This document shows, in pieces, positions 42,173 through 44,642 of a DNA stretch of 64,000 bases. Origin of the DNA: Promethearchaeota archaeon (GTDB lineage: Archaea > Asgardarchaeota > Lokiarchaeia > Sigyniarchaeales > SOKP01). Under the pieces are notes generated by a model. It ran no database searches. It was not told the origin of the DNA and saw only the letters and a program-made list of their open reading frames with translations. Made by a program: the position numbers and the translations under genes. Positions within the stretch are counted from its first letter, which is position 1. Each line of letters starts with the position of its first letter. The stretch covers positions 32,674-96,673 of the forward strand of contig JAHLWP010000011.1 in the NCBI GenBank assembly GCA_019057865.1, in the 5' to 3' direction.

Positions 42173-43453
42173 ATGACTAAGATCATTTTTTTGTCTGGTT
42201 TTCCGCCAATGATACATGGAATAGGATCTTATACCAAGTATTTAGTCGATGTTTTGTATGAAAAGGGTTGTGACTGTGGAATAATAAGTTTTGATCCTTA
42301 TGCTTGTGAATTTCCCATAATGAAAGAGAAAAAAATAGAATGCGAATATCCAGTTCTGTATACTATCCCTAGTTGCAATGATTATAAATTCAATCTGATC
42401 TTTGACAGTTTAACTAACTTATATAAAAATGGGGATAATTATGTTTTTTGGATACAACAAGGTGATAGTTTTTGGAGAAATCGTTTAAAATTTGTTAAGA
42501 TGTTGAAATTTTTCAAGAAAAAGAAAGTTAAAAACATAATTGTTACACATCACACTCTTAATTTTCAGAGCCCTGAAACCAGATATGGTCTTAAAAAATG
42601 GCAATATGAATTACTTAAAAACGAATTGCCTTATATAGACGTGAATACAGTGTTCACAAATGGGGTTTATATGGCAATTACTAAAGCATTCCCTGAGTAT
42701 AGAGATAAGATTGTTTTAATTAGACATGGTGTCCCGTCATATCCTCGAATAAGTCAGAATAATGCTAAAAAAGAAATTATAAGTTGGCTTGAGAGTAAAA
42801 ATGAATTAAAAAAAGATTGGCAAAAAAGTGTAGAAGATTTAAATTCAAAGATTTTTAAAAGAATTACTATTACATTTGGAGATGTAGGTTTCATAGACAA
42901 TAGAAAACTTTCAACTACTATCCCTCTTACTATAAAAATTCTTCAAAAAAGATTTCCTGATAAGAATATTATTGGTTTGTATATCGGAACTCTAAGCTTT
43001 CTATCTAAACAAAAAATTAGTTATCTACAAAGACTTAAAAATCTACACAATCCTGAGAATAACTTCTACTTCTTTGAAACCTATGTGCCTGAGAGATTAT
43101 TTGCGAAATCACTAAGGATTTTAGACATAGTTTATATGTGGCAAGAAGATTGCAGGCAGAGTGGAAAATTGGCACACGCCCTTGGTATTGGTGCCACAGT
43201 TGTTGGTAAAAAACTCGAGGGCGTAGGCGAAACTCTTAAAATGTGTGGTTATCCTGCGCTGAACACTTACAAAGATTTTCTAAATGAAATAGAGCGAGTT
43301 ATAGCCAATTCTGAGTCTAAAGATTTAATGAAGAAAAGAGCTAGCAAGTATGCTAGGACTTATAATTGGGAGAACCAGGCCTTAAAACATATAGAACTTG
43401 CAGAATCTTTAATTTCAGGAGATAAATTACCTCTCTTAGATGGATGGGAGTGA
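42173..43453 (+). CDS. Glycosyltransferase, GT-B fold (GT4-like)
   Basis: FPPMIHGIGSYT, VTHH, IRHGVP, QSGKLAHALG, YNWENQA. Confidence 0.85.
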   Translation: MTKIIFLSGFPPMIHGIGSYTKYLVDVLYEKGCDCGIISFDPYACEFPIMKEKKIECEYPVLYTIPSCNDYKFNLIFDSLTNLYKNGDNYVFWIQQGDSFWRNRLKFVKMLKFFKKKKVKNIIVTHHTLNFQSPETRYGLKKWQYELLKNELPYIDVNTVFTNGVYMAITKAFPEYRDKIVLIRHGVPSYPRISQNNAKKEIISWLESKNELKKDWQKSVEDLNSKIFKRITITFGDVGFIDNRKLSTTIPLTIKILQKRFPDKNIIGLYIGTLSFLSKQKISYLQRLKNLHNPENNFYFFETYVPERLFAKSLRILDIVYMWQEDCRQSGKLAHALGIGATVVGKKLEGVGETLKMCGYPALNTYKDFLNEIERVIANSESKDLMKKRASKYARTYNWENQALKHIELAESLISGDKLPLLDGWE

Positions 43454-44642
43454 TTGGATGAAATATGAATTGAGAAATTTTCCTCTTAAAAGAAAAGAAT
43501 TTGATGAAAAAATTAGTTTTGCTGAAAAAAATCTCTTCAGTTTGGGGCTAAAAGATGTAGCAGAAGAGATTGGTAGAGAGAATGCAAAGTGGTTCATAGC
43601 TAATATACATTCTATTCAAGAAAAGTTAGGGTATGAAAAAAAAGCTATGGTCGTCGGAGCACCTGGTTTCACTTTCCAAACATCTTCTGACAAATTTCGT
43701 AGAGGAATTCCTGAAGGAGCAAAGTTCACATGGGGAGATAATACATATGATTTTGTTCCAACAGACTTAGGAATTGACTTTTGTGGTATGTTAGTTGGTG
43801 TAATCGAAGATGATCTAAGTCTTGAGAGAATTTTGAATATCCTATATGAAATGAGAGAAAAAAAATATGAAATCGATAATATAGAGATAGATAGATCTTA
43901 TTTTTGGCCAGGAGGTCATTTCTTGAAGGTATATTATGTTAAAAACTATAAAGCCCTAGACTTACCGAAAAAAGTTGCGGTTTTACACACATCTTCAAAT
44001 AAAATGCGGAATCAATTAAAAGATTTTGTTCGAGAGAGAGTCAAAAAAATAGAAACCTCCTTTGGTATAACACACGTTTTGCGAGGAAGAGATGCGAGGG
44101 AATATGAGAAATGTTGCAAGTATGCGAGTGAATTTTCTAAAAAAAAACGACAGATTCTCTTTGAAGAGATTTTTGATGGTGAGATAATAGCAAACCATAA
44201 TCACTGTGATTTAAAGGGACTTAATGAAGCAATTATTGGCTGTGATGTTGTTGACGAGGGAGAAATTTCTGTGATATCATTAACTAATAGAGCTTATCTA
44301 GTTAAAGGTAAAAAGAATCTTTCTTCAGAAAAAATCGAAGAATGTTTCGGTTCAAGATCAATTGAAGAATGGGCACATAATTACCTTTTAAACCTTAATA
44401 TGGTTTCTCATGGAGGTGGTCATGAATTACCTGGAGTAGATCATCTTGAAAAAGTCATTTTTTTTCCTAAGGGAAGAATTTTTGTTTTAAAGTGTGGTTC
44501 TAGGATCGAGGCATATGAAGATATGTGGAATTTTCCTCGCGGTTACAGAGTAGAAGGTATTTTGGAGAGAGTCCAATCTCTTGGATTAGCAAATCATTAT
44601 GCAACCCTTCAATTAATTTATACAATCAAAGTTGATTTCTGA
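43440..44642 (+). CDS. Divergent RtcB-family protein
   Basis: Ordered motifs DFCGM, GGHFL, HTSS, NHNH, SHGGG correspond to RtcB DxxCG, GNHF, HxGS, HN, HGAG. The start may be the second Met (43458). Confidence 0.72.
   Translation: MDGSDWMKYELRNFPLKRKEFDEKISFAEKNLFSLGLKDVAEEIGRENAKWFIANIHSIQEKLGYEKKAMVVGAPGFTFQTSSDKFRRGIPEGAKFTWGDNTYDFVPTDLGIDFCGMLVGVIEDDLSLERILNILYEMREKKYEIDNIEIDRSYFWPGGHFLKVYYVKNYKALDLPKKVAVLHTSSNKMRNQLKDFVRERVKKIETSFGITHVLRGRDAREYEKCCKYASEFSKKKRQILFEEIFDGEIIANHNHCDLKGLNEAIIGCDVVDEGEISVISLTNRAYLVKGKKNLSSEKIEECFGSRSIEEWAHNYLLNLNMVSHGGGHELPGVDHLEKVIFFPKGRIFVLKCGSRIEAYEDMWNFPRGYRVEGILERVQSLGLANHYATLQLIYTIKVDF

Follow-up and report, generated by a model that had tools for sequence, protein, structure and literature searches.

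A compact, divergent RtcB-fold protein encoded beside a glycosyltransferase in a Lokiarchaeal genome

To our knowledge, RtcB is the only ligase class that activates a 3'-phosphate via histidine-GMP. RtcB paralogues of Myxococcus reportedly have capping activity. In E. coli, RtcB2-PrfH carries out ribosome repair by means of a specialised RtcB paralogue (PMC9223846, PMC13166195). The roles of the metal-ligand and strand-contact residues of RtcB have been assigned (PMC8051266), as have the guanine contacts Glu206, Ser385 and Lys480 (human Glu230, Ser409 and Lys504) (PMC8668186). Here we analyse a window of 64,000 nucleotides from a Promethearchaeota archaeon (contig JAHLWP010000011.1, positions 32,674 to 96,673), which is part of contig C9 in a genome of 4.26 Mb, 99.7% complete and with a G+C content of ~29%. 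The window contains a two-gene module encoding a predicted GT-B glycosyltransferase, P0001, and a compact RtcB-like protein, P0002. As far as its alignment indicates, the P0002 family forms a branch of its own, so far unannotated, within the RtcB superfamily, in which the residues of the chemistry are kept while those that bind polynucleotides are lost in the clade of P0002 (the A clade).

A compact protein with the RtcB fold and catalytic centre

The two genes of the module are as follows.

42173..43453, + strand: predicted GT-B glycosyltransferase P0001, 426 aa, of an orphan family resembling MshA, OtsA and sucrose-phosphate synthase (SPS) according to its AlphaFold2 (AF2) model, Foldseek and invariant columns; HTxxFQSxET and EGxGE conserved
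43440..44642, + strand: compact RtcB-like protein P0002, 400 aa from the ATG at 43440 or, more probably, 394 aa from the ATG at 43458

Both reading frames, described in the initial annotation as overlapping or abutting, exist and are translationally coupled; as annotated, they lie on the same strand with an overlap of 14 nt. The true start of P0002 is probably the ATG at 43458, because several orthologues are 394 aa long and Met7 is where the alignment of the family starts. This ATG is located 4 nt past the stop codon of the transferase (43451-43453), with a GGGAG sequence ~10 nt upstream. With either start, the two genes are tightly coupled.

P0002 has no match in Pfam, where the RtcB family PF01139 is absent even at E <= 1, none in NCBIfam, none to RtcB or any other sequence of the PDB by phmmer or with a 42-sequence profile, and none among the PADLOC defence or PHROGs phage families. 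The AF2 model of P0002 displays a mean pLDDT of 94.3 and a pTM of 0.92. Searching with this model, Foldseek returned 16 matches at E <= 1e-3, and RtcB chains account for all 16, with E values between 4e-10 and 4e-8. In a VIA-align comparison with 48,161 chains, the best match was T. thermophilus RtcB (2epg_B), with a Z-score of 21.9 and a root-mean-square deviation of 3.3 Å over 297 residues, the second-best match reaching a Z-score of only 5.1. At the profile level, HHalign matched a 206-sequence family profile to a 26-sequence profile of Asgard RtcB over 343 columns, with a probability of 94.5% and E 8.1e-8; with a smaller 42-sequence alignment the match was weak (local E 1.7e-3), and the columns paired by the -glob run were spurious. 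In the ESM Atlas, the third-closest cluster to P0002 (366 aa) has PF01139 in 13% of its members. The RtcB fold, initially proposed from short motifs, is therefore confirmed by the AF2 model, Foldseek, VIA-align and HHalign, and P0002 is, on its predicted structure, a true although very divergent RtcB-fold protein. All of those motifs are present (DFCGM, GGHF with His160, HTSS with His183, NHNH with His255 and SHGGG with His324), and the departures pointed out at the same time are real: DxC for DxxC, GGH for GNH, HGGGH for HGAGR, and a shorter chain of 400 aa versus 494 aa for the RtcB of the same genome.

A HMMER search over 1.84 billion representatives yielded 349 clusters (50% identity) at E <= 1e-3, none of which is canonical RtcB; by this measure the family is rare. 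Family members average ~400 aa, with reading frames intact in dozens of genomes. Across family sequences that are less than 30% identical, 20 columns are invariant, with all the catalytic residues among them. The lack of any database family matching P0002 would fit a remnant of RtcB that is inactive or in decay, or an open reading frame that is no real gene; against the number of clusters, the invariant columns, the intact frames and a pLDDT of 94, such an explanation is scarcely credible.

To compare the active sites, residues were mapped by HHalign profile alignment and counted in the 206 sequences of the family, and their counterparts are numbered as in P. horikoshii RtcB.

43776..43784, + strand: codons of Asp113-Phe114-Cys115; Cys115 is the HHalign counterpart of the metal-bridging Cys98
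43914..43928, + strand: codons of Gly159-His160-Phe161-Leu162-Lys163, counterpart of RtcB Asn202-His203-Phe-Leu-Glu206
43986..44000, + strand: codons of His183-Thr-Ser-Ser-Asn187, counterpart of RtcB His234-Thr-Gly-Ser-Arg238
44202..44204, + strand: codon of His255, aligned to the HN motif of RtcB and counterpart of the Mn1 ligand His329
44409..44423, + strand: codons of His324-Gly-Gly-Gly-His328, counterpart of RtcB His404-Gly-Ala-Gly-Arg408
44544..44549, + strand: codons of Tyr369-Arg370, aligned to Tyr-Lys of RtcB APGAYK, near the nucleotide pocket
44628..44630, + strand: codon of Lys397, 3 residues from the C-terminus, counterpart of the guanine-contacting Lys480 (human Lys504)

Mapping the conservation on these positions reveals that Cys115 is kept in 201/206 family members, His160 (matching the Mn2 ligand His203) in 206/206 and His183 (matching the Mn1 ligand His234) in 205/206. 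His255 is invariant (206/206), whereas the other histidine of the NHNH motif, His253, is kept in only 52/206. Asp113 lies two residues before Cys115, compared to three for Asp95 in the DxxC motif of RtcB, and HHalign leaves a one-residue gap there. It is the probable counterpart of Asp95, an Mn2 ligand, and the position is occupied by Asn in 132/206 sequences and by Asp in 67/206. His324, present in all 206 sequences, is presumed to be the nucleotidyl-accepting histidine, matching His404; the adjacent Gly325 and Gly327 are kept in 203/206 and 205/206, respectively. Near the putative nucleotide pocket, Tyr369 is found in 178/206 and Arg370 in 194/206, while position 397 is Lys in 163/206 and Arg in 14/206. 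Judging from this alignment, the two-metal site of RtcB, made of one Cys and three His, and its histidine nucleophile are conserved in P0002.

The surroundings of this centre are different. A segment of ~65 residues that contains Arg190 and Gln194, which bind the 5'-OH strand in RtcB, is deleted in the P0002 alignment. Gly159 replaces Asn202, which in RtcB holds the 5'-OH nucleophile (146 Asn, 48 Ser and 10 Gly across the 206 sequences), and Asn187 takes the place of Arg238, a ligand of the 5'-OH strand phosphates in RtcB; family members have Pro, Asn, Asp or Ser at this position, with Arg in only 11/206. With these three changes, every side chain that RtcB uses on the 5'-OH strand is predicted to be gone from P0002. 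In the putative nucleotide pocket, the guanine-contacting Glu206 is replaced by Lys163 (Asn or Lys in the A clade; Asn, Asp or Lys across the family) and Ser385 by Ala285, the preceding Gly-Ser-Met-Gly-Thr loop being shortened, and of the three guanine contacts only Lys480 is kept, as Lys397. The charge of the protein also differs, with an isoelectric point of 6.6 for P0002 and medians of 6.0 for the A clade and 6.3 for the rest of the family, compared to 9.0 for the RtcB of this genome and a median of 8.65 for Asgard RtcB. We read these data as a chemical engine that would be preserved, combined with an altered substrate site and, possibly, a shift in nucleotide preference.

A two-gene module within a widespread family

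A family match was found in 212/400 Asgard genomes and in 119/134 genomes of the window's taxonomic family, and the family is also scattered in Hadarchaeota, Bathyarchaeia, Methanocellales, Chloroflexota and Spirochaetota. This genome possesses three genes of the superfamily, namely RtcB (contig C75), a paralogue (contig C54) and P0002. The gene on C75 is a separate, canonical RtcB (561 bits to PF01139). Since canonical RtcB is also present in 41/41 Asgard genomes sampled, P0002 is not an RtcB replacement. The C54 paralogue (G000:C54:173506-174693; L004:9453-10697) is 28% identical to P0002 and belongs to the widespread Asn-Asn-Tyr type. Its neighbours are an unnamed 209-aa gene, a STAND-type ATPase and a methionyl-tRNA synthetase (MetRS), in an arrangement conserved across the Lokiarchaeal family.

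In a tree of 206 members, the derived A clade separates from the rest, with Asp113, Ser or Gly159 and His328 as its signature versus Asn113, Asn159 and Tyr328 in the others. The A clade is composed of Lokiarchaeal genes, 83-100% identical to P0002, and of a Hadarchaeota/Bathyarchaeia group at 52-57%, referred to below as the sister clade. The sole fusion seen is P0093 (743 aa, from a metagenome), in which an APH/choline-kinase-type domain (residues 57-268) precedes an RtcB-like domain with NGCG, GNHF and PHGSG motifs; a search for fused family forms of at least 780 aa found none. No description of a compact RtcB-like family was found in a literature search.

The transferase gene is located directly upstream of the RtcB-like gene, with a 4-nt gap or a 14-nt overlap, in 9/9 Lokiarchaeal A-type loci with an upstream flank. 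It occurs in 9/135 genomes of the taxonomic family, spread over three genera, and eight of the copies are full length. These adjoin the A-type gene in 8/8 genomes; in G145 the adjacency spans a contig break. The two genes thus form a strict, patchily distributed accessory module in one Lokiarchaeal clade. The coupling to a glycosyltransferase, as claimed in the initial annotation, is strict in this subclade and does not extend to the family as a whole, being absent from the sister clade, from all 40 loci of the widespread Asgard paralogue and from the loci of the transferase's relatives. A link to inositol genes or a glycosyltransferase is likewise absent in 12 sister-clade and outlier loci.

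Two further observations concern the transferase gene. The ninth copy (G193:C17:57522-57968) is a 149-residue N-terminal remnant, 89% identical, in a genome of the same genus without an A-type gene, pointing to a module that has decayed or been lost as a whole. An RtcB-like neighbour was also sought for the transferase's own bacterial relatives (50-100%-related) and rejected, with 0/80 metagenome loci showing one.

The closest public loci are those of Promethearchaeota (Lokiarchaeal) metagenome-assembled genomes (MAGs), such as Loki_b32. In the window, genes near the module encode a Ras-family GTPase, KTI12 and CDC48. On the upstream side, an AT-rich non-coding stretch of 855 nt (41318-42172) separates a divergent 702-aa helix-turn-helix-array gene from the transferase. 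The earlier suggestion that the pair modifies or repairs nucleic acid alongside a divergently encoded nuclease is not supported, as the gene in question is 855 nt away on the opposite strand and the upstream genes vary among orthologous loci. On the downstream side, the module is followed by a spacer and three inositol genes.

44643..45151, no strand: AT-rich spacer of 509 nt between the module and the inositol operon, from the sequence
45152..48526, + strand: inositol operon of three overlapping genes, from Pfam and synteny
45152-45967, + strand: IPCT-like nucleoside triphosphate (NTP) transferase, from Pfam
45915-47372, + strand: DIPPS-like CDP-alcohol phosphotransferase, from Pfam
47369-48526, + strand: MIPS, from Pfam

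Owing to the AT-rich spacer, the two-gene module and the inositol operon are probably separate transcription units. The IPCT/DIPPS/MIPS block is found downstream of the module in 7/8 orthologous loci with a downstream flank, and one locus, L039, keeps the transferase and RtcB-like pair without the inositol operon. In two loci, the gene orthologous to window positions 45915-47372 is cut to an intact short reading frame of 163 aa (L037:12418-12909) or 81 aa (L038:12372-12617) without the CDP-alcohol phosphotransferase domain, and the two deletions have different end-points; both loci retain full-length genes for the transferase, the RtcB-like protein, IPCT and MIPS. The DIPPS catalytic domain seems to have been deleted independently in these two orthologous loci, which is a suggestive lead only. 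A second, more divergent MIPS-family gene is located at G000:C87:12199-12537, scoring 74.6 bits versus 122 for the window copy.

Elsewhere in the family, recurrent neighbours are limited to single lineages: HIT-like genes in one genus, MetRS in the window's family and a nitroreductase in one lineage. For the widespread paralogue, a conserved partner was considered and rejected, the HD gene found at 10 loci and the unnamed 212-aa gene found at 13 others not being homologous; the latter takes the place of the HD gene in Lokiarchaeia. In one Asgard family (L087:8230-9810, L089, L090 and L091), genes for a pyruvoyl arginine decarboxylase and a deoxyhypusine synthase, enzymes of the polyamine/hypusine pathway, come after the paralogue on its strand. 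In a Spirochaetales MAG (L053:7414-12842), the RtcB-like gene is part of a same-strand run with a lysine-2,3-aminomutase-like radical SAM gene, two ATP-grasp genes of D-Ala-D-Ala-ligase type and an unnamed 203-aa gene, which is a small-molecule or peptide biosynthetic setting.

The transferase, the inositol genes and possible substrates

The match of P0001 to PF13439 is sub-threshold (16.8 bits versus a cut-off of 28.5), and one of its relatives has a precomputed PF13524 annotation. The AF2 model of P0001 (pLDDT of 90.8) gave at least 500 Foldseek matches at E <= 1e-3; every match listed with a probability of 1.00 is a GT-B enzyme. MshA ranks first (3c4q, E 6.5e-15, TM-score 0.66-0.71), followed by glycogen, sucrose-phosphate and trehalose-phosphate (OtsA) synthases, PimA and BshA. 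The TM-scores to BshA and PimA equal that to MshA, and the rank of MshA is non-specific. On this model P0001 is clearly predicted to be a GT-B enzyme, but because the TM-scores of the top matches are similar, 'MshA-like' is a lead and not an assignment. The 'GT4-like' label given initially is supported as regards the GT-B fold, with MshA as first match, and not by Pfam, whose hit remains below the cut-off.

MshA glycosylates inositol-1-phosphate, and enzymes of the MshA, OtsA and SPS types act on phosphorylated acceptors. In 9/80 metagenome loci, relatives of P0001 at ~36% identity are encoded two genes away from MIPS. These relatives are part of a conserved cluster (L199:2524-13229, also L188, L180 and ~6 more metagenome loci) with the gene order HSP20, MIPS, GT-like, transferase, GT4-like, two GH130, GT-like, mannose-6-phosphate-isomerase-type cupin and glycoside hydrolase, which looks like an undescribed pathway for a mannosyl/inositol glycoside or a stress solute.

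A small-molecule phosphate is a plausible substrate for P0002, and we tentatively favour a phosphorylated sugar or inositol for the A-type enzyme, with the mechanism outlined below, on account of the type of enzyme it is paired with, the separate connection of that enzyme to MIPS and the missing polynucleotide contacts. The initial annotation had proposed, as one of two possibilities, that an RtcB-type enzyme makes an activated donor or a phosphodiester solute or headgroup from such a substrate. Indirect support for this comes from the resemblance of the transferase to MshA, OtsA and SPS, which glycosylate phosphorylated acceptors, from the MIPS genes adjoining its bacterial relatives, and from the missing 5'-OH strand residues together with the acidic character of the family. 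A further lead is P0093, in which the RtcB-like domain is fused to a small-molecule kinase of the APH type.

In the proposed mechanism, P0002 would nucleotidylate itself on His324, using Mn-type metals and an NTP that need not be GTP. The nucleoside monophosphate would then move from His324 to a phosphomonoester to yield an X-pp-N intermediate, where the reaction would either end or continue by attack of a hydroxyl to form a phosphodiester. Candidate substrates are the glycosyl-inositol-phosphate product of the transferase, inositol-1-phosphate and CDP-inositol, and the product would be a glycosylated solute or headgroup resembling di-myo-inositol phosphate (DIP). CDP-inositol, which the adjacent IPCT would provide, is the same type of species as the RNA(3')pp(5')G intermediate of RtcB, a suggestive analogy. 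A more complete proposal, in which the compact RtcB-like enzyme would be a soluble phosphodiester synthase or NDP-activating enzyme working on (glycosyl-)inositol phosphate or CDP-inositol, would make with the transferase a glycosylated inositol-phosphodiester solute or headgroup and could partly replace the membrane DIPPS, is unlikely when taken as a whole; if true, it would make this the first non-nucleic-acid RtcB.

Several observations weigh against a sugar or inositol substrate. The residue mapping derives from aligned profiles and a modelled structure rather than from a superposed experimental one. All linked loci are 77-92% identical orthologues, and the link to the transferase and inositol genes therefore counts once, as a single evolutionary event; as evidence of functional coupling, it is strong within one lineage. 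None of the sister-clade loci has the transferase, and the RtcB-like genes of this clade stand alone amid varied neighbours. The idea that the transferase is hidden elsewhere in these genomes was discarded, as 5/5 sister-clade genomes searched contain no orthologue anywhere (0/5). The same five genomes all have MIPS, which we do not count as evidence because MIPS is very common in archaea. The inositol operon is found without the module in 13/17 genomes having the operon, and the 509-nt spacer parts the two in the window. Beyond these loci, among 91 distinct neighbour clusters at 50 loci, no Pfam family is shared more than twice and no sugar or inositol gene cluster is present. Finally, the main branch of the family keeps the Asn202 equivalent (142/145 sequences), making polynucleotide substrates possible for the family.

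This last feature is also consistent with the main alternative, in which P0002 would be a nucleic-acid end-processing enzyme whose specificity is unlike that of RtcB, such as capping of 3'- or 5'-phosphates or sealing of ends presented by a partner or a structured substrate, with the transferase as an accidental neighbour. Every characterised enzyme of the RtcB fold acts on polynucleotide ends (PMC8051266, PMC10630183), and the whole catalytic centre is kept in P0002. The near-universal presence of this main branch in Lokiarchaeia (119/134) is what might be expected of a housekeeping enzyme, and its neighbours are at times tRNA synthetases or beta-CASP RNase-like, HD or HIT-like genes. The link to the transferase, being one event that is absent in the sister clade, would agree with an accidental neighbour. 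However, the equivalents of Arg190, Gln194, Arg238 and, in the A clade, Asn202 are absent, and the family is acidic, unlike the basic RtcB. Archease, RtcA and other RNA-repair partners occur neither in the top-25 family tally nor among the neighbour genes scanned singly, and these or Pnkp/Hen1-type partners do not recur in the 91 neighbour clusters. In addition, the association of the pair in 8/8 genomes, its 4-nt spacing and its joint loss are unusually strict for an accidental neighbour. Altogether, we consider a nucleic-acid substrate somewhat unlikely for P0002.

In another alternative, the metal centre would serve hydrolysis or another transfer: P0002 would be a phosphatase or cyclic phosphodiesterase that takes off or opens the phosphate remaining on the transferase product, or would nucleotidylate a hydroxyl of a protein or metabolite. 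Pathways with MshA-, OtsA- and SPS-type transferases need a subsequent dedicated phosphatase, and none is evident in the module. The guanine-specific contacts are not kept, leaving NTP use uncertain, and HD and calcineurin-like phosphoesterases recur weakly beside other family members. The reaction of RtcB includes a 2',3'-cyclic phosphodiesterase step that depends on metal (PMC10630183). In contrast, His324 with its Gly-rich loop, Tyr369/Arg370 and Lys397, whose counterparts serve the nucleotidyl-histidine step in RtcB, are among the most conserved positions, which a plain hydrolase would not need, and we regard this use of the metal centre as improbable.

Identifying the substrate of P0002 would extend the range of reactions known for the RtcB fold and give a name to several hundred clusters of hypothetical proteins. 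The two-gene module of Lokiarchaeia provides a practical, testable way into the function of the RtcB-like family, and it may bear on inositol-based solutes or lipids in Asgard archaea.

Comparison with described systems

P0002 is most similar to RtcB itself (PF01139; P. horikoshii PH1602, T. thermophilus TTHA1785, E. coli RtcB and human RTCB), with which it shares the predicted fold, the order of the Cys, the three His and the HGxG histidine, the Tyr-Lys/Arg pair and the C-terminal Lys. In contrast to RtcB, it is ~95 residues shorter and devoid of the strand-binding insert, its Asn202 equivalent is Gly (Gly or Ser in the A clade), and Glu206 and Ser385 are replaced. The compact family as a whole is acidic, has a DxC spacing mostly with Asn, coexists with RtcB and has no RNA-repair partner among the neighbours scanned. 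RtcB2-PrfH and the Myxococcus paralogues show that extra RtcB genes take on separate tasks and that the chemistry can end at an X-pp-G cap. However, those paralogues are ordinary PF01139 proteins acting on RNA or DNA, whereas the compact family is outside the Pfam model and without the strand-binding residues.

The best structural likeness of P0001 is to MshA, a GT4 enzyme that transfers from UDP-GlcNAc to 1L-myo-inositol-1-phosphate, and to OtsA, sucrose-phosphate synthase and GlgM. Like MshA, P0001 is genomically tied to inositol-phosphate synthesis, but its identity to MshA-type enzymes is only 11-16% and its Pfam score is sub-threshold.

A third comparison is with the DIP pathway (MIPS, IPCT and DIPPS). 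Its known phosphodiester step is catalysed by a membrane CDP-alcohol phosphotransferase and involves no RtcB-like protein. According to a passage in PMC3124967, citing Rodrigues et al. 2009, glycosylated DIP is made in Thermotoga by MDIP synthase, which is unrelated to known glycosyltransferases. Compared to that synthase, as characterised in the passage, P0001 differs in being a predicted GT-B enzyme. The likeness to the pathway lies in the gene arrangement, since here too a glycosyltransferase gene is found beside IPCT, DIPPS and MIPS.

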